Below, in pieces: positions 15,029 through 29,559 of a DNA stretch of 64,000 bases. This DNA is from Octopus vulgaris. Lineage: Eukaryota. Within the stretch, counting starts at the first letter, position 1. Each line of letters opens with the position of its first letter. The stretch lies in NCBI GenBank assembly GCA_951406725.2, contig OX597820.1, positions 128,402,001-128,466,000 of the forward strand, given 5' to 3'. Under the pieces are notes generated by a model. The model had not been told where the DNA came from. It worked only from the letters and a program-made list of their open reading frames with translations, and searched no databases. Position numbers and translations under genes: made by a program.

Positions 15029-16192
15029 TTAGTTAGTTAGTTAATTTGGCTCAAAAGCAAATAGCAAGGCCATGTAGGGGGACATGGAGTTAAGTACAGG
15101 GTGGTGTTCATGTAAAGAGTTCAGGCCACTTGAGGTCCAGGGAGGCTTTGAACAAAGCGGTCGTCGGCATCTTCACCATCTCGTCTGGCAGCTTATTCCA
15201 CGGATCCGCAACCCGGACGGAGAAAGCTCCTCTCCTTCGATTGAGATGAAATCGTCGCAGGTAGAGCTTTTCGGAATGACCTCGCAGCCGACGCTCTGGA
15301 GCAGGAGTGAAGAACAGCTCTTTCGAGAGGTTACACTTTCCGCTTATAATGTTGTGGGCGAGAATGAGATCACCACGGCGGCAGCGTTTTTCAAGAGAAT
15401 AAAGGTCGAGCGTCCTCAGCCTTTCTTCGTAGGACAAATTTTTGAGACCATGAACCATGCGGGTAGCCAGCTTCTGGACTCTTTCGAGATGCTGTATGTC
15501 TTTGAGGAGATAAGGAGAAGAGGCTTCAATCCCATACTCCAATATGGGTCTCACCAGCGTGACATAGAGTGGTAGGAATATGGCTGCTGTGAGCATTCCG
15601 AATGACCGTCGAATCAAGAACAGAATTCCGCGTGCTTTGTTGGCAGCATGGACGCACTGGGCCGAAGGCGAAAAGGAGGAATCCACCAAGATACCCAGGT
15701 CCTTTACCTGATCGGTCCTCTCCAGCAGCAGATGACCCGGCTCGAAATCAAGTTGAGTTGCAGGAGTAGAGCCGACAGGCAGATGACACGTTCAGACACA
15801 TGTCCCAATCGTTAGACCACTTCCAAATTTGGTGGAGGCATCGACGAAGATCCTCTATATTACCGCGAGGAGCGACCAGTTTGATATCGTCGGCAAATAG
15901 AAGGGTGTGTTGCGTGAAGTCGTCGGGCAAGTCATTTATGAAGACTAAGAACAACAAGGGCCCAAGCATTGAACCTTGAGGCACGCCACTGCTCGCACTG
16001 GAGACGTCGGACCGCGAACCATTAACTTGGACTTGGAAGGAGCGATCTGAGAGGAAGGCACCAACCCATCGTACAATATCCGGATGGAAACTATGCTTGA
16101 AGCTTGACAAGTAATAGGCGGTGGTTTACCGAGTCAAAAGCTTTGGCAAAGTTCAATAAAACGATGTCAACAGCATCACTATCATCGAGGAT
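15029..16192 (-). mobile_element. 5'-truncated near-identical copy of the CR1-group LINE at 10017
   Basis: Near-identical to 10030-11204 including tail and 3'UTR; small deletions cause frameshifts. Confidence 0.95.
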
Positions 16193-17881
16193 AGTACTTG
16201 TGAATAGAGTCGTGTACGAGCAGAGCGAAAACTATAAAGAGTATTTTTTCTGTTCTTTTTTTTTTGTTTCTTCTAATGGTTCAGTGGTTTTTGCATGACG
16301 CAGAACAGCAAGCATATCACTAGTGCAGATACTCGAATAATCAAGTTCCATCATGTATATCTATACTGATCTTACTGGAAAAGAAACGAATTTGTAAAAC
16401 AAACGAAACACTGCTGGAGTGAATAATTGCAAATAAAATATATATAATCATAGATCAAAGGAAACCTAATCCGTTAGTATGATTATATATGGAGTATTAT
16501 TTTCTAGTAATCTAAAAGTCAGCACGATAGACAAAATGCTTAGCGGCATTTTCTCGATCCGAGTTCAACTTTGCCTTTCAGGAGGTCGATAAAACAAGTG
16601 CCATCTGAGCGCTGGAGTCTATGTAATCGACTAATCCTCTCCCTAACATTGCTGGCTTTGTACCAAAATTTAAAACCATTAATTTCTGACAATTTATAAT
16701 AAATGAAAAGCGATAATGTTATAGAAGGCTGCTATAGTTTAGAAATCGCTGGAGGAATTGCCAATAATGAGAATCCACATATTGCTTTTATATTCTAACG
16801 ATTAAACTTATTTGGAGAAAAGGAAATCTAATAATTTTCTACTGAGATACAGATTTTGAAATGAATTTCAAAATATTTTTTAAATGAGATTTCTTATAGA
16901 AAAAATATTTATAAAAGGGACATTACTCTAGCCTAGGCGTAAATATTCCATTAGTCTATCTACTAAATATGAGAAAAATGAGGCAAACACTTTGTAATAC
17001 AGTCACGTCACAAACAACCTGCGGCACCTTTTGAATGGCACGTCTAAACGAAAAATTAAATTCAATGTTTTTAATAGTTTGGCCCGTCTGATGATCTATC
17101 TCTCGAGTGTTATGGTACATGGGTTTTCAAATTAAATTTGACTATTTCTGCTTTGGAGAGCATGAAGATTTAAAGCTGTACTTGCGCCAGGTATGAAAAT
17201 GACTACTGTTCACTGTGAAGAGTGTAAAAGTTGTAAGACGTGACATGAACAGCTGCAGCAGAAACTACGAAGTCGTGGTGAAGTGTTCTGAGCGTCCACA
17301 CACCAAAATTCATCCAACCGCTGTCTGCAACACCAAGGCCATGCAGGTGGCTAAGAAGAGTGCTTGAAGATTACTCCCATGTGCCAGATTCCGGTGCCTT
17401 CAGGTCGTTGTGGAAGCTGAGGACGGCTACATTCAGACAAGTTTCCTAGATGGTGCCATTTTTCATGTCTGTAGCAGGTACTCATTTTTTATGCTATCAT
17501 GTTCTATTCGTTTCACCAACAAGACAGATAATTATATTGATTTAAAGATGATAGAATGAATAGAAATTGTTAAATTTTATGTAATGTTTTCACTCAACAT
17601 TGCTCTGTTTCAAAAGGAAGTTTTGATCATTCAATTGCATATTTTAAACATTCAGAAACTCTGAAATACCAAATATTCTTCCATCATTGTATAAAGAAAG
17701 AGAAAAAATAACCCTTCATGCAGCAACAAGATGAACAAGGTATATAACTGCAGTATAAGTGAACAGCACAAGACAATATTTTGATCATACAATACCAAAA
17801 AAATAAAATCTGAACAGTAATGTAATGTGAACAATGGTTAATAAATGCAACACAAAAGAAAATATTAAACTCAGTAAATTA

Positions 17882-17887
17882 TTTATT
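17882..17887 (-). promoter_or_regulatory. RPS10: Polyadenylation signal AATAAA of RPS10
   Basis: TTTATT on plus strand, 11 nt after the TAA stop; short 3'UTR typical of ribosomal protein mRNAs. Confidence 0.75.
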
Positions 17888-17898
17888 TCCAAAATCCA

Positions 17899-17931
17899 TT
17901 ACTCTACATTCCCTCGGCCAAATCCAGCTCT
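17899..17931 (-). CDS. RPS10: RPS10 last coding exon ([10 protein letters not shown])
   Basis: Acceptor tctttcag at 17932; RxGFGRG C-terminal motif; TAA at 17901-17899. Confidence 0.92.
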   Translation of the reverse strand, partial: RAGFGRGNVE

Positions 17932-20900
17932 CTGAAAGATGACAAAAATTAAAGATCTGATTAGAAATTGTGTATATGATTGAAAAACTATAAACAGTAC
18001 TGAGAAGACAAGTTACAATTTACATATTGTTGTATTTAGGAATGGTCATTTTGCCAGTTTAGCCAATAAAAACACACGCACTATATATTTGGTGTTACTT
18101 TGCTTCAGCATTATTTATTTTTTATATTAATCTTAATTCGGCCAGAGTTCTTTTGTCAAACTCCTGTGACCGCATCAGTGGTCCTTTGCTTTCTTCTTTC
18201 TTATTTGTGTGTCTCTCCTTACTAACACACAAATAAGAAAGAAGAAAGCAAAGGACGACTGATGAGGTCACAGGAGTGTGACGAAAGGACTCTGGCCGAA
18301 ATAAGATTAAGATTAATGTAAAAAATAAATAACACTGAAGCAAAGTAACACCAAATATATAGTGCGTGTGTTTTTATTGGCTAAACTGGCAAAATGACCA
18401 TTCCTCAATACAACAATATATGTTTCAACACATGATTTCACATCAAAAATCTTGCAAAACAAATATATAAATGTAACAATTTACATAATTATTTCTTTTA
18501 ATGATAAAATCAGGATGTATGCATGAAGCAAAGAATGAACTGAAAAGACTAAAAGTGAAAGTTTCAATTCAAGCTCAATCTTTTTTTTTTTTGTTTTCCT
18601 ATTTTTATTTTCTATTTATGAAAGCATGTTTCGTCATTTTAAATTTCTAACAGGGAAATTATCAATGATATATGATATTGGTAGTAAGAGTTCTTGTGAC
18701 AGAAGCAGCAACTGCTTGTTTTGAGATTCAAAATCTAACAGACAGCTCCATGTCAATTTTCATATTATACAGCAGATTATAATTAGAAGTAATTAGTAGT
18801 GTCTAGCATAAACAGTAGGATAGTTTATGCCAGACATACAATAGTTTCATTTAATTGTTTATGTACATTGTTGTTATTGACAGCAGAAAAAAATGTATAA
18901 AATTCAGTGAAGTTAACAAGCTTTTTCTAGTAATTCAGAGACATAAACTATTCCATTCTGTCAAAATAACTACAGCCTTTATTCATAGGTTACATACTTT
19001 AGGGCAAAAGCCTATTTTATAAAAACAGCAAAGCAAGAAACAATAACATGGTGTCTTTTCTACAGCATAGGACAGACATGACTAGTTTAAAAGTTTGTTT
19101 TACAACCTCATGGTCTCCAGTTCAGTACCACTGCACAACTTTTCATCATCATCATTAACGTCCGCTTTCCATGCTAGCATGGGTTGGACGAATGACTGAG
19201 GGCTGGCAAACCAGATGGCTGCACCAGACTTCAATCTTGATCTGGCAGTGTTTCTACAGCTGGATGCCCTTCCTAACGCCAACCACTCCAAGAGTGTAGT
19301 GGTTGCTTTTACGTGCCACTGGCACGGGGGCCAGTCAGGTGGTACTGTCAACAACCTCGCTCGAATCTTTTACACATGCCACCGGCACAGGTGCCAGTCA
19401 GGCGATGCTGGTGACGATCACACTCGAATGGTGTCTTCTACATGCCAGAGGCACGGAGGCCAGATAGCCGTGACATTTTACGTAAATCTTTCAGCATGTG
19501 TTTCCAACATTAATACTGAAAACAGTGGACTATTAAATACACAAAATATCTATCAAAATGTATGCATAAAAAAAAGTGGAGGTTAAAACAATGATGCTAG
19601 CAATAAGTGATTGCTCAAAATACTTACATATTGAATGTCTCTTAAACTGCCTGGACCAGCATCAGTCTTTTTATCACCACCCATTCCTGTAAAAAAAAAA
19701 GCAAAAATAATAACAATGTCACCATTCTAAATATGCCAAAACTGAGAAATTTCAAATTTCAATCACTTATTTTAAGAAGAGAATTGAACCAACTTTTAAG
19801 TATTGGAAAATAGGGTAATATAAATATTATCAAGTGTAGTTCAAGTAATACTAAAACCCACAATTCAAAGTACATGTTGCTCAGAATAAAGCAGAATCCA
19901 AATCCATGATAAAGAGTTAACCACATGTTAAACTCTTAAAATCAAAGATTTGACAACCCACATCTCTGGTTGCTTTCAGGACCCCTGCGCTTATCATCAT
20001 AGCAAAACAGCATTAAATCAGAATTGCATATCAAGAAATTACATTTCTTTTTAGTAAAGCTAATTCCCTACATGGTGATAAGTTTCAAATGATGCCTATA
20101 AATTTCTTATAGTTTATATGAATCATAAATATACAGGAAGAAATAAGCAACATTAACCAATAACTTAGGATTTCCATTATACTGACAAGAACAGAAAAAA
20201 CCAAAAAATGTTTTGGTCTTGAGCCTTCGTTATACTTGCCTAAAAGCCAATTTCCCATATCAATTATTGTTACATTACTAAATACATCACTTACCAGAAG
20301 GTGCTCTCCTGTATTCACGGTCAGATGAAGGGCCACCACGGGACAATTCAGGTGCTAAAAAAATAAATAAAAAACAAATTTAAGAAAATATTTTAAAAAT
20401 GCATTTCTAATTTTTTCAATGTGCCATCAAAACAGATTGCTAACAACGAAAAAGAAAAAAACTGGCCCTTGCTTTTCTCCTAACTCTTCCATTACTATAT
20501 TGCTTACCAAACTGCACCCCTAAAGTGTGTTGCAATTGAATTGAATTCTAAAATAATCATGAATTTATCCATAAAAACATTTATCTATCAACATAATGTT
20601 AGTTTTGGAACACGATTTAACAAAAAGTTCTTAAATTTATTTCACAATTTTTTGTCTCAAGTCTCATCTACATACAGGTAATAAATTCAAAATATAAAAT
20701 TATTTTGATAAATCTGTCAAAAATGAATTAATATTCAATGACTATTGAACAAAATTTTAATACAGAAGAATTGTGCAAATTACTGCATTATCTATCAATA
20801 TAAGACCAAAACTAGGAAATGAAATAGGAATGAAATTCCAAGACATTCCAAATCAAGACTTTTTTCTTCAAATTCACTCAAATAATTTAATTTTCAAGAA

Positions 20901-23900
20901 TTTGATAAACTTTAAATTTCAAATCCTAAAAATTTAGCATTTTGGACTGATGGTATATTTGCATCTGTGAACATGTGTGTGATTGGATAAGACTAAACAT
21001 GTAATCCAGTATACTATGGAGGTAGTTTTATATAAACCTTATATACTATATAGTGAATTTAAAAGCAATTTTAATAATTTCACAAACACTTGGGTGCAGG
21101 TGAAGAATTTGCTTCCTAACCACAAAGTTCTGGCATGGCATCTCAAGTGTCTTTTACAGTACAGGGGGTGAATTTAAGCCCTGTAAGTGGATTTGATGGA
21201 TGTAAACTGCAAGAAGTCCATTGTTCTAAATACGTATGTATATACCTGTCCTCCCCGCATCACCACTCTGTCCCCTTAAATTAGCAGTTTGGCAAATGAC
21301 TGACAAAGTACCAGGCTTTAAAACATAAGCACTGGAGTCAATTCATTTGACTAAAAACCCTTCGAAATAGTGTCCCAGAATGGCCACGGTCCAATGACTA
21401 AGACATGTTGATGCTCAAGTCAGGTGTAATGTGAAAGTAATTCAGTGTAGCTTTTTGCTCACATTATGATCTTCAGCCCAAAGTGGTATGGATATTCATG
21501 ATCTTTTGCTTTGCACAATATTTCACATTTCCATTCATTACTATGACTTTAACACTTTCAACACAAAATACATGATAAATAATGCACATGAGGTTTTGTT
21601 GCGGCTGACAGTAAACCACCACCAACTTTTAACCCAGCTGGGCATGCTCAGCCAATGTTATTCCCAAAAGATTAACATTCTGATGTCACTTTGTTGTGAT
21701 GCTTCTTTTAATCTGAAAAGTTTGATTTCATAATTTCAAAAAGTATTAAAAGGAAAGTGATACTCAGGTAGCATGGTTTTCATTTTGACAGAACACTCAA
21801 AGAGGGTTTTATTTACCTTGTGTCTGGCATTCCTAGCAGAAACAAGATACAGATTGTTTTTGTCTCCATAAAAGATTTTTAAGTGTTTCTTCTAGAGTAA
21901 GAAGAAACATTAGAAAAACCATTAACCTTTTTGTTATATTCTTGTTGAAATTACTTTTGAAAATGAATTTAAAATAATTCTGTTGTTAATAATCTGGAAT
22001 TTGGGACATAAATTAACATGGAATTTGGCTGGAATGTTTTAGTTCAGTCTCAAGTAGGTTGGTATCGAAAGGGGAATCTTAGCGCAGACAATAAAAAACA
22101 AAATTACGTATCATTTAATGTCTGTTCAGCAAGAACAGACATTAAATGATAATGAAGCCAATATATGAAACATATTTTGAAGGAGGATTTTAGATTAAAT
22201 GAAGCTTGTATCAGAACCTGAAGCAGTGTTGGTAACAAAAGGGTTCATTCATTGGGGGCTTTATTTACACCCAACAAATACAACAATATTTATCTACGGG
22301 AGTTATAGATTTCTCCTATGAAAGATATATGAAACTGTCAACATAAGATGGCTATTCAGATTAGATCCAGATCTTATTTGAGAATTTCTTGTCAACTTAC
22401 AGCTTCAAGATTTCCTTTTTATACAACATACATAATTATAATCTTAATCACATATCCATAAAGACTTTTGTTTGCTAAACCAACCAGTTTGTTTAAGCAC
22501 AAAAGGCCAAGATCATTTACTCTTTCAATATCAACCCACATAAAGACTATCCTAGGTCCTATGATACAAACTTCCTGTTTTAACCATTTAATAAAATAAC
22601 TCATTATTGAAGTGGTGTTTAGAAATGTAAATTAACATATTTTGATCTATTTCAATTTAGGTCACTTTAAAACAAGCAACTGTTAAAGAACCAGAGGCAA
22701 TTTCAAACAGGTTGGTATCAGAAGGGTTAAAATGATCTACATTAAAAGTTCATGTTAATTTATTCCAAACCCCAAATCAAGAAAGCTTCTTTTACTAAAT
22801 ACTTTTTTTTCCTTTCAAAATTGAAAGAAAGCAATGTATTCCAACAGAAATATGGTAACAAAAGTGTTCAACTCTAAACATTAAAAAAAATTACTTGCAA
22901 CTTTTAAGTTAATTACTAAAACTGATTTCTGATGGGGTAGCAATTCATCTAATAACAAAGTAACGAGTTCATTAGATTAAGTTTTATTTGTGAAATACAG
23001 ATGCTTTGAATTTGCTGCAGAAAGAGGTTTATGTGTCTGATAGATAGTCGGGGTGGGGGCGCTAGGAATGTGGCCTGGGTGTCGAGGGGGCAGCAACCCG
23101 AAAAAGTTTGGGAACCACTGCCTCAGAGGGATGAAAAGCCAGAGTTCACCACTAAAAGCTATTTTAGAAGTGAACCACCATCATTCACTCGTCTCATACA
23201 ATTCTATGCAGTCAGACAATTCAATAAAAATTTTCAATGACAAAAGTCAGTGCTAAAACAAGAAGCAATTTCTAGTTACAAGCAACATAAAAGGATATCA
23301 CTTACCACATACCTCAAGCAAAGTGCAAATAATCCAGTTACTTGCCTCAAACTTGAAAATTTGAGCATTTCTGTGTATGCATTACAGTAATAGCAAATAT
23401 AAAGTTACACACTACTACAGTGCCATTTCTTTAAACTGAAGAGGACGAAAAATGCTTACCCTTTGGTCTTGGTCCACGAACTGCTTCTGTGCGGGTCTGC
23501 CTCTTCAGTGTGGCAGGCACAATTTCAGATGGCAGGTGGAGGAAATCTCTAAGGTATTGGATACCATCATTGGTTAAGTACCAATAATAATGCCTCCAAG
23601 CAAACTGCTCTGTCACGTAAGCACGAGACTTGAGGGACTAAACAAAGAAATTGAAAACTAGAGTCACAAAAGACAAAATAGCATATAGATATATATATAA
23701 AAGAAAAAGAGCTTCAGAATGCCGGATGGTTGTAAAAATATATATTTATTTACATATCACATATTTCTTTATATTAGCGCCTTCAACTACTGTAGTTTCT
23801 TCTGATGAAACTACAGTCGATGAAAGCCCTAATATGAAGAAATAATGTGATATGTAAATAAATATATATTTTTACAACCATCCAGAGGTGCAGCAATGTC

Positions 23901-26900
23901 AAAGGAAGACTAACTAGGAAAATAGTTTTTGTCTGTGGCAGATGCTCAGGAGCAATAAACACTGGAAATGTGCAGAGACCAACTTCTACCACGTTCCAGG
24001 GAGAAAAACTAGAAGTAGTTGATAGCTTCCGCTACCTAGGTGACCAAGTCAGTAGCGGGGGTGGGTGTGCTGAAAGTGTAACTGCTAGAGTAAGAATAGC
24101 CTGGGCAAAGTTCAGAGAGCTCTTACCCCTGCTGGTGACAAAAGGCCTCTTGCTCAGAGTAAAAGGCAGACTATGATGCATGTGTACATACAGCCATGCT
24201 ACATGGTAGTGAAACATGGGCTGTGACTGCTGAGGATATGCGTAAGCTCACAAGAAATGAAGCCAGTATGCTCCGATGGATGTGAAATGTCAGTGTTCAT
24301 AATCGACAGAGTGTAGGTACCTTGAGAGAAAAGTTGAACCTAAGAAGCATCAGTTGTGGTGTGCAAGAGACGTTTGCGCTGGTATGGTCATGTGACGAGA
24401 ATGGCTGAAGATAGTTGTGTGCAAAAGTGCCATATCCTAGCAGTTGAGGGAACCTGTGGGAGAGGTAGACCCAGGAAAACCTGGGACGAGGTGGTGAAGC
24501 ACGACCTTCGAACTTTAGGTCTGACCAAGGAAATGACTAGAGACCGAGACCTATGGAAGTATGCTGTGCGTGAGAAGACCCGGCAAGATTAGTGAGACCA
24601 TAACCCATGGCCTCTACCTGGTATGTAGCCAGTCGACTTATACATACCTTTCCTCCTTGGGACACAAAACTCCACTTGTGAAGACCCGTTGAGGCAAGTG
24701 AAAATCAAAATCAAATCAGATATCAGAAAGCAGAACCAAAATCGAAGTCGATCAACATCAATAGAAATTGCGACTGTGATACTAGTGCCGGTGACAAGTA
24801 AGCGAACCATCCGATTGTGGCCGTTGCCAGCCCCGCCCCGACTGGCCTCCGTGCCGATGACACGTAAAAAGCACCATCCGTTCGTGGCCGTTTGCCAGCA
24901 TTGTCTGGCACGTAAAAAGCACCCACTACACTCGCGGAGTGGTTGGCGTTAGGAAGGGCATCCAGCCGTAGAAACACTTCCAGATCAGACTGGGCCTGAT
25001 GCAGCCTTCTAGCTTCAGACCCCAGTTGAACCGTCCAACCCATGCTAGCATGGAAAACGGACGCTAAATGATGATGATCCAGCATTCTGAACATCTTTTT
25101 CTTTCATATGTATTAAATCTGTACATCACCCCCAATACTTCTAAAATATGTATGAATATATATTTATTAATTTGTTATTACATGACAGAACGCCCGCATC
25201 CATTTCTAAGTAAGTTTGTTCTTAATATTACTACTGATGTGCACTCTTAACCCTTTCTTCTTTCTGGTTTCCTTTTCTTCTACCTTACTGCCTCTCCCTC
25301 CCTCTCTCATTCTTCATTCTTTCTGATTTTCTCTACAACCATTCCTCTTTCTTCTCTCCCCTTCCCTTTCTCCACCCCTGTCCCGTCGCTGGTCAGCGAT
25401 GAGGAAACTAGTCTTTTCTGACCTTGAGTGTAGACGGCATTTTCTGTTGCTCCTTTGCCGATCTCAAAAATAGCATTCGTAATACTTTATCTCATTTGGC
25501 TTAACAGCCCTTCTTGTCTTGTTATTCACCTTGTCCTGTCTTTTACTGTTTATATTTTGTACTGTCGTTACTGTCCTGTTTTTGTTACCATTTTTACCCC
25601 TCCGCAAAAAAATCTCAAATTTTATTTAATTTGCTTTTCGCGGGAAGGAATATTTCAGTCGAAGTTGCATCTCGCTTTCACCTTCAAAACGCAGAGTAGA
25701 TGAAACCATGGCGACTGAAGAAGGGGAATCTTCCTTGTGTTATTTGTCCTGTACTCTATTTTTTCGTTGTTTAAGAAAAATGTCCGTTTCCTTGGTTTTG
25801 TGTTTATGTTTTTGTTTTTCATTGTGTTTGACGTTTTTTTTTTTTTTTTGGTGTCCTGTACCCATATATGCATGTATATATACATGTAGAGGTAGGTACG
25901 TACATATATGTATGTATATATGCATGTTTTATTTATTTATTAATTTGTTATTACATGACAGAACGCACGCATCCATTTCTAAGTTTGTTCTTAATATCAT
26001 CATCATCGTTTAGCGTCCGTTTTCCATGCTAGCATGATATATATATATAAACACACCTGCTTTACGTGGTTAGATAACCTAGTGAGTTTGTTATTAACAG
26101 TTACTTCCAGTCATTTTATATTAGGTCTCCGAAATTTCATAACATTCCTTATTACTAGGGCTAATACAAAATTTGGATTTATTCGGTTTGACTGCCAGCA
26201 CCAATTCTGTTCAAGCTGATTTCATATTCAGTGTAATGATATATTTGTATGTCAATATAAAGATCCTCACCGGGCACATAAAAAAAATAAATAACTAGCC
26301 TGGGGTGTGTTAACAAGTGTGTGGAAAACGAATATGAAAAAAAAAAATGCGCGCTGATGATTCGGGGGGGGGGGGGCTTTAGGAAAATTCATAAGATCCA
26401 ATTTTCTCGTCATAAATTCGGGTAAAATGGATATATATTGATTTTTTTTTTTTTACGGAATCCCACGTTTTTGGTTATGGAAGAACCGATTCTGAAAAAA
26501 GAATTTTCAAAAATCGTATTTTCGAAATTTCATTATCGCAGTTTTTTGAAATTTGGCTGTTATTTCTAGCATGTGGATAGCCGGCTTGAAGGCCTGAGGG
26601 TATATATTTTTCTTGTTGAAAAATTGAAATTTTACAAACAAACGTTTTTCAGGATCGTAATCCCCACCCCAGGGCCGTCAGCGCGCATTTCTTTTTTCAT
26701 ATTCGTTTTCCGTGCACTTAACACCCCCAGGCTGGGTTTTTATAATGACCCACTTTTATAGGCTAATAAATGACATTGAAATCATTTCCGCTATATACAA
26801 ATCAATAAAGAGTTATGAGCAATTAGTTTGAAAATTTTGGGTAATTTAGCCATAGAATCATTCATGCGTTTCCACAGTAACAAGCAGAATAATGAGAACA

Positions 26901-27066
26901 TAAGAAAATAAATGGATATTCTAACCTGTAGAGCTTTAATTACATGGATATTACAAACATCAATTTCTGGATGCTTCACACCAGTGAAGTCTTTTCTGGC
27001 TACCATCACACCCTCCTTGAAGAGGTGTTCATAAATGGCAACGCGGTTCTTTTTGGGCATCAACAT
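17899..27066 (-). CDS. RPS10: 40S ribosomal protein S10 (eS10), spliced CDS join(27066-26926,23637-23460,20354-20295,19686-19628,17931-17899), 156 aa
   Basis: [26 protein letters not shown]...KALQ|[46 protein letters not shown]...PRPK|[20 protein letters not shown]|[20 protein letters not shown]|[10 protein letters not shown]; all introns GT-AG with consistent phases (0,1,1,0). Confidence 0.97.
18024..18419. mobile_element. About 190-bp-arm palindromic element with a hammerhead core in each arm, in the last RPS10 intron
   Basis: 18024-18212 is the reverse complement of 18225-18419 with a 12-nt loop; 12-bp direct repeat ACAATTTACATA at 18015-18026 and 18476-18487 (TSD-like); CTGATGAG-GTCAC..GTGAC-GAAA at 18259-18286. 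Confidence 0.88.
18692..18812 (-). ncRNA. Candidate intronic box H/ACA snoRNA (last RPS10 intron)
   Basis: Hairpin - H box ATATGA (18765-18760) - hairpin GACA..AGATT/AATCT..TGTC - ACA (18697-18695) + 3 nt; same strand as host. Confidence 0.55.
19143..19470 (-). mobile_element. SINE / RTE-LINE 3' tail ending in (GAT)n
   Basis: Shares GGTTGGCGTTAGGAAGGGCATCCAGC...CCAACCCATGCTAGCATGGAAAGCGGACGTTAA-(TGA)n with many copies (24900-25078, 30306, 51035-51348, 58293, 60786). Confidence 0.85.
19628..19686 (-). CDS. RPS10: RPS10 coding exon 4 ([20 protein letters not shown])
   Basis: ttttacag acceptor, gtaagt donor; DKK..AG.G motif. Confidence 0.93.
19876..20006 (-). ncRNA. SNORD94: Box C/D RNA, SNORD94 (U94)-like; predicted guide for U6 snRNA Cm62
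   Basis: Terminal stem TTGC/GCAA, box C ATGATGA (20000-19994), guide GCGCAGGGGTC, box D' CTGA (19979-19976), box D CTGA (19884-19881); guide pairs over 11 nt with U6 GGCCCCUGCGC and its +5 position faces C62. Confidence 0.88.
20295..20354 (-). CDS. RPS10: RPS10 coding exon 3 ([20 protein letters not shown])
   Basis: tttttag acceptor, gtaagt donor; DR.YRR motif; 60 nt, phase 1-1. Confidence 0.92.
21594..21722 (-). ncRNA. Candidate intronic box H/ACA snoRNA (RPS10 intron 20355-23459)
   Basis: Hairpin AGATTAA/TTAATCT with TCAC/GTGA top; H box ATAACA (21661-21656); hairpin GGCTGA/TCAGCC with CCAGCT/AGTTGG top; ACA (21599-21597) + 3 nt; about 130 nt. Confidence 0.6.
23460..23637 (-). CDS. RPS10: RPS10 coding exon 2 ([30 protein letters not shown]...PRPK)
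   Basis: Core S10 domain; ttctttgtttag acceptor, gtaagc donor. Confidence 0.97.
23724..23883. repeat. About 160-bp palindrome with a degenerate hammerhead core at its centre
   Basis: GGATGGTTGTAAAAATATATATTTATTTACATATCACA...ACTGTAGTTTC / GAAACTACAGT...TGTGATATGTAAATAAATATATATTTTTACAACCATCC; CTGATGA..GAAAGCCCTA in the right half. Confidence 0.85.
23886..25078 (+). mobile_element. RTE-clade LINE 3' fragment with 3'UTR and (GAT)n tail
   Basis: [38 protein letters not shown]; [22 protein letters not shown]; stops and frameshifts. Confidence 0.9.
26297..26733. mobile_element. MITE with about 55-bp terminal inverted repeats
   Basis: AGCCTGGGGTGTGTTAA..GGAAAACGAATATGAAAAAA..ATGCGCGCTGA versus TCAGCGCGCAT..TTCATATTCGTTTTCC..TTAACACCCCCAGGCT. 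Confidence 0.8.
26926..27066 (-). CDS. RPS10: RPS10 first coding exon ([26 protein letters not shown]...KALQ)
   Basis: Conserved eS10 N-terminus; acceptor ccttttacag with one UTR base before the ATG; donor gttag at 26925. Confidence 0.97.
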
Positions 27067-28200
27067 CCTGTAAAAGGAAGACGAAAAAAATGAATTAAGA
27101 ATCGAGTTGAAACAAAAAAAATTCTTTCCATGAAATGAAATGAAAAAGAAACATTCAACAACTTATATTTATATTAATAATTCAAACAACTTCTTAGTTT
27201 CTGGGAAATGTGGGAGAGATTGTGAAGAACCTAAAGGAAACCAGGGATTTTAATAGAACAACGATTTTTAACAGTAAAGTTGCTAATCAACCATTCAAAT
27301 AGAATCCGTTTGAATTATTAAAACATTACAAAGCTATTTGAAGAATTTAATATAACACTCAAAAGCACTTTTTCTTAATTTGGCGAAATTCCGATTAAAA
27401 GTGAGTGAAGTATTAAAATATCACAAGTTTACTTCAAATACCGAAAACGAAACCAAAGACGAGCAAACATAAGAAGTTGATAATTCTTTGTTAAGAGCCA
27501 AAAGAATCTCTCCAACTCAAACATTTCGTTTCGCTGTTTCAATCAGGTTTTTATTATTTTCTTCATTTCGATCGAGAATTGAAGGAAAATTCACAGCAAA
27601 AAAGTCGCTTTTAACGGTTAATATTTTAAGTTTCTCATTAATTGACTTTGAGCCTTAATTTCTCAGGAAACAGGAAAAATAGCAGAGTTAACTTTCAAAT
27701 TCGTCGAGTTTTTAATAATGTTGATAAAATGAATTTTAAAAAGAAATAATTACTTCTAATTGGTAGAATAACCGTTAACTTTTACCGTAATTAATTAAGA
27801 ATGATGCAATTAGTTCTATAATTAGAATGCGAAATAACTTTATTTAGAGAGAAGACACGTGTGGACAGATTTCTCCGAATAACAATTATTCTGAAGAGAT
27901 CAGTGATTTACAATCAATGCTGACTAATAAAACTGAACATCTGATGAAATATAAAAAGCAGTAAAATATAGAAAATATCTAAGACCCATTTTAGCAAAAA
28001 AAAAGAACACGGATTATATATAGTATAACATAATCGATGATAAACTATTGAATATAAATGCTAAATAAACATTCTAAATGAATCAAAAACTCATACAAAC
28101 GATAGAGAAAGAATTAAATTAAATATCTAAAGCATAATGAAAGCTCGATGAACATTTTTAAAAACATAATTAAATAGATAAAGGTGGAAAGCAAACTTAC

Positions 28201-28238
28201 TTGTGCTGTCAGTAAGAGATTACAAACCGGAAAGGAAG
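28201..28238 (-). promoter_or_regulatory. RPS10: RPS10 non-coding exon 1a with 5'TOP / TCT-type start
   Basis: CTTCCTTTCCGGTTTGTAATCTCTTACTGACAGCACAA|GTAAGT; splicing to exon 2 gives ...CACAAG-ATG. Confidence 0.85.
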
Positions 28239-28417
28239 TTTAACGGCCGCAGAGAATGTAAGGAAAGATAACTCAATACAAATTGGATTCATTAAAGAAC
28301 AAAATCGTTTTTTTGTTTTTTTTCTGAGCGAAACAGAAATAGAATAAAATTTCATTAATAAAATTTTGTCTTGGATGAGCATAAAGTACAAACAGATTCA
28401 TTTCAAGAGGAACTTAC

Positions 28418-28462
28418 CTAGTAATACACGTTAGAACCGCACAAACCGGAAGAAAAGGGAAG
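28418..28462 (-). promoter_or_regulatory. RPS10: Second, distal 5'TOP non-coding exon candidate (exon 1b)
   Basis: CTTCCCTTTTCTTCCGGTTTGTGCGGTTCTAACGTGTATTACTAG|GTAAGT. Confidence 0.6.
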
Positions 28463-29559
28463 TTAAGATCAGTAACTCTTAGACTTTATTGTTAAGGAGA
28501 GTTCTATTGCATTCCAGGTGTGACCATCTCGTCTTTTTGTATATTACATATAAGCAGTACTTGAGAAGAGTGGTCCCGGTGCGCGTACTCACGCATCCGC
28601 GCCAGCTAGTCATGACTAGTCGATCCTTACTTTGTGTTATTTTGTTTAAAAAGTTATTCACTTTGTGTAAAAAAATTATTTATTTTGTGTTTTATTTACT
28701 TTGCTAGGTAGTCGTTGCAGGATCGACTACTTACGATTAGCTAGCGCGGATACTCGACTGCGCGTACCGGGACCACTGCGTGAGTTTGTTTACATTTCTG
28801 AAGAAAAAAAGAAACCCTTTTCTCCCACCCCTAACCCTAACCCTAATCCCCCATATATATATAAAAAAACTTTACGGAGAGTGACGATCTTCTTCAAATG
28901 TAAACAAACGCACGTGGCAGTTATGATACTCGTACCGAAAGATGGCCACAGTACCCCTCACCCTTTAGCTTATCTTAGCGATGCGTTTCGAATTCCTAAT
29001 GTTCTCAATTAAATACATGTCTAATGATCAGTGCTGTCACTTCTTCAAATTTCTTGAAACTATTAGACTTATGTCTAATGAAAGTAGAAACAATTATACT
29101 TCCACTATTAGTAGTAATATTTTAGATTAGTAATTTTGGTCCCCAATCTCAGTGAAGGATATGATTTTTTAGTATTATTTGTTGGGGCGGAATTCTGCTT
29201 CAAGCACCCCATATAACTCGTAACCTTTTTTATTTTGGCGAATTTGTATTCTACACATGGGAATTCGTACAATTATGTAAAAAAAATATGTAAGATTTAA
29301 GGGTGACTTAGCTGTTGTTTTTAGCACATCATATGACCATCTGAGACCTTCCTCGTTTCTTTGTCACTGACATGTATCGATGGTTTTCAATATTTTTCAC
29401 GCCATAAACACATTTGATGGAATGATAATGCATCCAAAGGTAGTCCATTTCTATGATTTATGCAAAAACTTCGGATTGTCTATTTTAAACTCTGATTTTA
29501 AAGATTCGAAAAAGAGTGGAACTTTTAGTATTTATAGCGGGATTACTAACTCACTTTGA

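Follow-up and report, generated by a model that had tools for sequence, protein, structure and literature searches.

The window analysed here is a stretch of 64,000 nt of the Octopus vulgaris genome. Its minus strand carries the RPS10 gene, with five coding exons, GT-AG introns and a reading frame of 156 aa with no internal stops. An intron of this gene contains, in the sense orientation, a candidate snoRNA of the box C/D class, the stable small RNAs bound by fibrillarin, NOP56, NOP58 and SNU13. The gene and the candidate are laid out as follows.

26926..27066, minus strand: RPS10 coding exon 1; PF03501; 47/47 identical to PDB 9EHO chain LL
23460..23637, minus strand: RPS10 coding exon 2; PF03501; best PDB match 9EHO chain LL
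20295..20354, minus strand: RPS10 coding exon 3, on the 5' side of the host intron; splice joint
19687..20294, minus strand: host intron of 608 nt with GT-AG ends, the third to interrupt the RPS10 coding sequence; splice joint seen in runs X19 (RNA) and X17
19876..20006, minus strand: SNORD94-like box C/D snoRNA gene; Rfam RF00613 over its full length, covariance model R1, fold
19628..19686, minus strand: RPS10 coding exon 4, on the 3' side of the host intron; splice joint
17899..17931, minus strand: RPS10 last coding exon with stop codon; loose end of the spliced contig in X17

The original prediction had named RPS10 as the host, and this was confirmed by the five-exon reading frame, by the splicing of the intron and by Pfam, where both RPS10 exons tested matched the S10 domain (PF03501). 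The PDB chain to which exon 1 is identical is likewise 156 aa long, and its entry was deposited by an octopus ribosome preprint. Contigs that skip the 608-nt intron were found in two of four runs, X17 and X19, the latter on record as RNA. The contigs of X19 cover exons only, which has no bearing either way on snoRNA production. Comparison of the runs revealed one substitution within the element, in one run, and the runs are too close to the window to give a conservation signal; this variant turns an A-U pair of the predicted fold into G-U. An 87-nt contig present in two runs (X12 and X14) aligns with no more of the element than its 3' end (19866-19899), where 30 of 34 letters agree and four differ. 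We rejected it as a match to the element, since its flanks are unrelated and the likeness is probably due to chance or a repeat.

The surroundings of the element include, at 18024-18419 in the last RPS10 intron, a foldback some 400 nt long, with arms of 114 nt (96% complementarity) and 92 nt (91%) and sub-threshold matches to many miRNA families. It is likely a MITE-type element and possibly a double-stranded editing substrate. Downstream of RPS10, the open stretches at 15111-16231 on the minus strand have translations that we take to resemble part of a LINE-type retroelement, its reverse transcriptase region.

Within the element, the complete set of boxes and the terminal stem described in the original prediction were all located on the minus strand. 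Its parts are listed here in 5' to 3' order of the RNA, the two arms of the stem first.

20002..20005, minus strand: terminal stem, 5' arm (UUGC); sequence, folds
19877..19880, minus strand: terminal stem, 3' arm (GCAA); sequence, fold
19994..20000, minus strand: box C (AUGAUGA); sequence
19980..19990, minus strand: 11-nt antisense element to U6 58-68; pairing with human U6
19976..19979, minus strand: box D' (CUGA); sequence
19953..19973, minus strand: hairpin 1, 6 bp with a 9-nt loop ending AUGUG; covariation, absent from the Rfam consensus structure
19900..19951, minus strand: hairpin 2, a long interrupted stem; fold
19921..19927, minus strand: tip of hairpin 2, a C-G pair and AUGUG pentaloop, candidate LARP7 site; 7SK likeness, shuffles
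19889..19893, minus strand: YGC-containing element, predicted to pair with the guide 5' end; 5/5 pairs
19881..19884, minus strand: box D (CUGA); sequence

As in box C/D snoRNAs, the element is closed by a terminal stem, with box C near its 5' end and box D near its 3' end. It lies in the sense orientation of a spliced intron and carries just upstream of D' an antisense element that exceeds 10 nt. The stem has four base pairs (20005-20002 with 19880-19877) and 120 nt span box C to box D. The predicted fold is more stable than expected (z = -3.12), and only one of 200 shuffles was equally stable. A search for the pattern of box C, guide and D' had a single match in the window and none in 100 window shuffles; the test is partly circular, since this site and the Rfam consensus supplied the pattern. 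The internal C' box that partners D' is often degenerate in box C/D snoRNAs; here D' is canonical, no C' box was recognisable in the element, and inspection of alignments A1 and A3 by eye revealed no conserved C' consensus. We considered a second guide ahead of box D and rejected it, as the only conserved letters at that place are the YGC triplet, for which a pairing partner exists within the RNA. In vertebrates the favoured distance from box D to the 3' splice site is 70-80 nt; it is 194 nt in the octopus intron, and we counted this against our main reading.

The guide pairs at all 11 positions (10 Watson-Crick and one G-U) with nucleotides 58-68 of U6, as scored against human rather than octopus U6. 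The human stretch, from position 55, was taken from PMC13109388, which prints its end as 58 while its 14 letters reach 68. By the +5 rule (PMC11863803), the base of human U6 that is selected is C62, which faces the fifth guide base from D'. The predicted antisense element and its target were thus both recovered, except that the guide begins 3 nt past box C and not directly after it. That human U6 Cm62 is guided by SNORD94, as had also been stated, agrees with PMC6894857 and PMC7960923.

To examine the relationship with SNORD94, the element was compared with covariance models. The Rfam SNORD94 model (RF00613) matched 19876-20006 over model positions 1-137 with 37.6 bits and an E-value of 4e-7 in a search of 701 nt (6.7e-6 in 11.5 kb); the next-best family on the element reached 18.9 bits. 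The match proposed as a check by the original prediction was therefore found at full length, but its score lies under the gathering cut-off of 60 bits. Since 37.6 bits is below this value, we regard the element as a homologue that lies beyond the current Rfam boundary, not as a member of RF00613. In the 64-kb window no Rfam family, U6 included, reached its gathering score, and an e-value Rfam scan of 17000-28500 revealed no second snoRNA in the RPS10 gene.

Scanning metagenome data with the pattern of box C, guide and D' gave 51 loci; the same pattern had no match in viral contigs and none in prokaryote genomes. Nine homologues were chosen by eye because similar sequence continues after D', and a covariance model (R1) was built from these nine loci with the window excluded. 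R1 scored the octopus element at 64.3 bits and its sole other match in the window at 15.4 bits. When applied to the 51 loci, R1 gave 77.5-111.8 bits for the nine training loci, as it would by construction, and at most 28.4 bits for the 42 others. These 42 pattern-only loci serve as decoys, since the selection itself ensured that box C, guide and D' are common to them, and the gap between 28.4 and 64.3 bits indicates a likeness exceeding what the target forces. In the 5' part, 32-38 of 47-48 columns are identical between the element and each of the nine homologues, boxes and guide counted; the 3' halves have little primary sequence in common. All 10 copies agree exactly at guide positions 2-11 and in the C62 register.

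The homologues differ in their Rfam scores and in their hosts. At the gathering level four of 14 loci tested pass as SNORD94 (L036, L037, L042 and L048). At the e-value level, L004, L012, L041 and L051 match SNORD94 sub-threshold (24.8-36.3 bits), while the remaining two of the six loci examined, L029 and L035, have no listed SNORD94 match. L035 was dropped as a homologue, since it scored 28.4 bits with R1, lacks the loop motif of hairpin 1 and has no Rfam SNORD94 match at E 0.05. The copies for which coordinates were recorded are as follows.

L036:2494-2631, L042:450-588 and L048:750-884: Rfam-passing SNORD94 copies in RRM2 introns
L004:186-294 and L041:2428-2531: short SNORD94-like copies in cytoplasmic dynein heavy chain introns
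L012:407-520, L029:2420-2529 and L051:290-425: SNORD94-like copies in PRPF8 introns

The RRM2 assignment comes from Pfam for L036 and L042 and from translation for L048; we guess that these three copies are from fish. L037 lies with an mS39/PTCD3-type repeat that scored 26.5 bits in Pfam, just under the cut-off of 27. In human, SNORD94 is hosted by PTCD3. Chicken U94 is located in PTCD3 as well (PMC2653536), so that with three copies in RRM2 the host differs among vertebrate-type copies too. The two dynein copies are similar, come from one dataset and measure 93 nt from C to D, possibly reflecting a duplication within one gene. The three PRPF8 copies occupy different introns, as judged by their flanking exons. 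All five dynein and PRPF8 copies lie on the host strand, with a splice donor on one side and more exon sequence on the other. The dynein exon has its best named relatives in arthropods, at about 52% identity, and for the dynein and PRPF8 exons tested the highest scores are to human or other animal-type entries, from which they differ by substitutions. Their sequence suggests that these hosts belong to non-vertebrate animals. Within the spliceosome U6 is held by the PRPF8 protein, whose gene is here a host of SNORD94-like copies.

Across the 10 copies there are five host genes. The five further animal-like copies below threshold, in dynein and PRPF8 introns, indicate that the guide is not mollusc-specific and that host change is frequent. 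By its sequence, the RPS10-hosted element is one of several invertebrate-type SNORD94-like copies in various hosts. The original prediction had proposed an invertebrate orthologue in a different host gene that extends this guide to molluscs. The host is indeed RPS10 and not PTCD3, yet such a difference is ordinary for SNORD94. The presence in a mollusc is borne out by the identity of exon 1 to the octopus ribosome entry, but it is not special to molluscs. Homology beyond the guide is supported by the Rfam match, the R1 score and two shared internal hairpins, while strict orthology cannot be demonstrated as there is no synteny.

These hairpins are additional to the Rfam consensus structure of SNORD94, which shows the terminal stem only. 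In the alignment of the 10 sequences, hairpin 1 is a 6-bp helix that begins 2 nt past D', and RNAalifold predicted the same helix. Paired bases occupy 98.3% of its cells, and four of its six pairs show double changes, two of them from the octopus window. When the partners were slid, 20-48% paired. None of 500 shuffles reached the covariation score, a control that ignores relatedness and was applied to the same 10 sequences in which the hairpin had first been spotted. Hairpin 1 with a loop ending UGUG or UGGG is present in 10/10 homologues and in 0/42 pattern-only loci.

Hairpin 2 carries at its tip, in the window and in all four vertebrate-type loci, a C-G pair that closes an NNGUG pentaloop. 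The pentaloop reads AUGUG in two of these five copies, GAGUG in two and GUGUG in one, so that it varies at its first two positions only, and the stems below it differ in sequence. It is absent from the five other copies, which are of the non-vertebrate type. Shuffling of the window segment yielded such a pentaloop once in 2000 trials. Of 1580 fixed 81-nt tiles none had the pentaloop; this control is weak because it missed the element itself. The GUG loop is placed in hairpin 2 in vertebrate copies, in hairpin 1 in the other invertebrate-type copies and in both in the octopus RNA. Closer to the 3' end, pairing with the start of the guide is possible for the YGC element ahead of D, through 5/5 positions in the window and 3-5 of 5 in all nine homologues.

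We propose, with a probability of about 0.87, that the element is an intron-encoded box C/D guide homologous to SNORD94, likely cut from the RPS10 intron and predicted to direct fibrillarin in the 2'-O-methylation of U6 C62. By analogy with known guides, the RNA would be released from the spliced intron lariat and trimmed, and the box C/D core proteins would bind its C/D motif. The guide would then pair with U6 58-68, so that fibrillarin would methylate C62, five bases from D'. More tentatively, the GUG-ended hairpin loops may bind the xRRM of LARP7, which would then link U6 with the guide; the short internal pairing that covers the guide 5' end would first have to open.

It is highly unlikely that the element is instead a decayed or silent SNORD94-like copy, with a working copy elsewhere in the genome. 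Its sub-threshold Rfam score would fit such decay, and the two dynein-intron copies in one dataset show that the family duplicates. However, every box is perfect, the guide shows no damage and double changes have kept the stems paired. The fold is also more stable than 199 of 200 shuffles, and the sole variant in a related run exchanges A-U for G-U in the predicted fold.

We see an equally slim chance that the RNA, once made and bound to U6, modifies another base, such as C63 or C60, or serves only as a U6 chaperone, its C'/D' motif being degenerate. No clear C' box is present, the human table in PMC7960923 gives no guide for Cm63, and one snoRNA with a weak D' affects neighbouring bases (PMC11863803). 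The D' box of the octopus element, by contrast, is a perfect CUGA, and its C62 register equals that of the four vertebrate-type copies that pass Rfam.

Independent evolution of an unrelated guide that converged on the U6 C62 site is more improbable still. While the host gene differs, the 3' half has little likeness and the antisense letters would be forced on any guide to this site, convergence would not readily account for the shared order of elements, for the covarying hairpin at an equal distance from D', for the pentaloop of hairpin 2 or for the 5' identity with each of the nine homologues. A chance arrangement of motifs in an AT-rich intron can be set aside almost entirely, for although the 21-letter pattern occurs without hairpin 1 and its loop motif in 42 of the 51 metagenome matches, these decoys score far below the octopus element with R1 and the window shuffles did not produce the pattern at all.

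Beyond the guide function, the hairpin loops of the proposed SNORD94 homologue may have a role in protein recruitment. The LARP7 xRRM binds the loop of the 7SK 3' hairpin (PMC10083321). In the human loop, A310-U311-G312-U313-G314, the base that LARP7 binding cannot do without is G312, U313 is also important, and positions 310, 311 and 314 tolerate changes; a U-tail is needed as well (PMC3632141). LARP7 binds SNORD94 among six U6 guides (PMC11863803), and binding of the xRRM to stem-loops in LARP7-type U6-guide snoRNAs is mentioned in PMC10484740. The octopus hairpin-2 pentaloop, AUGUG, is identical to the human 7SK loop. Since the SNORD94 pentaloop varies only at two positions tolerated in 7SK, it is a candidate LARP7 docking site; from the analogy with 7SK, we would give this about even odds. 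We put a little below an even chance on the wider proposal that SNORD94 is animal-wide, with at least five hosts (PTCD3, RRM2, PRPF8, cytoplasmic dynein heavy chain and RPS10), and carries a conserved mimic of the LARP7 loop of 7SK. If this is true, LARP7-bridged U6 methylation and its RNA docking signal would go back to the ancestor that molluscs and vertebrates share, and the loop would provide a searchable signature for missing U6 guides.

Among the papers listed by literature searches, none reports an invertebrate SNORD94 in its title or abstract opening, a scope too narrow to establish absence from print. In the passages searched, PMC6984369 and PMC3511168 do not mention SNORD94 or U94, and a Drosophila preprint names neither a U6 site nor a guide. 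In human U6, efficient formation of m2G72 in the catalytic stem-loop requires both Cm62 and Cm63 (PMC13109388), and a mollusc guide for Cm62 would imply that this modification step is old in animals. Host change per se is ordinary snoRNA mobility, a known trait of these RNAs (PMC3511168), and the GUG-loop motif may already have been published for human. What the octopus element adds is the conserved internal structure and, within it, a specific mutable loop as a candidate site of LARP7 docking. The divergence of the octopus sequence exposes internal structure that is missing from the Rfam consensus, and the Rfam model misses invertebrate copies, six in our set being under its cut-off.

Among known systems, SNORD94/U94 is the closest. 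As the original prediction had stated, vertebrate SNORD94 shares the layout of the octopus element, with box C, 3 nt, guide and D' in the same order, and the two also agree in guide letters, C62 register, similar length, hairpin 1, hairpin-2 pentaloop and a sense intronic position. They differ in D' (CUGA in octopus, CGGA in vertebrate SNORD94), in the guide, which in octopus pairs one base further (G58), and in hairpin 1, whose stem letters are exchanged and whose loop ends UGUG in octopus and UGGG in SNORD94. The octopus host is RPS10, whereas the SNORD94 hosts are PTCD3 or RRM2. SNORD7, 8, 9, 10 and 67 and the fission yeast snoZ30 and sno530 likewise guide U6 methylation as box C/D RNAs and require LARP7 or Pof8 (PMC11863803, PMC10484740), but they target other U6 bases, and none is among the Rfam matches to the element. 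The likeness to 7SK SL4 is in the AUGUG pentaloop, the C-G closing pair and a bulged stem (PMC3632141, PMC10083321); the octopus candidate loop, in contrast to that of 7SK with its U-tail, is internal to the snoRNA, has no adjacent 3' U-tail and sits on a stem of different sequence.
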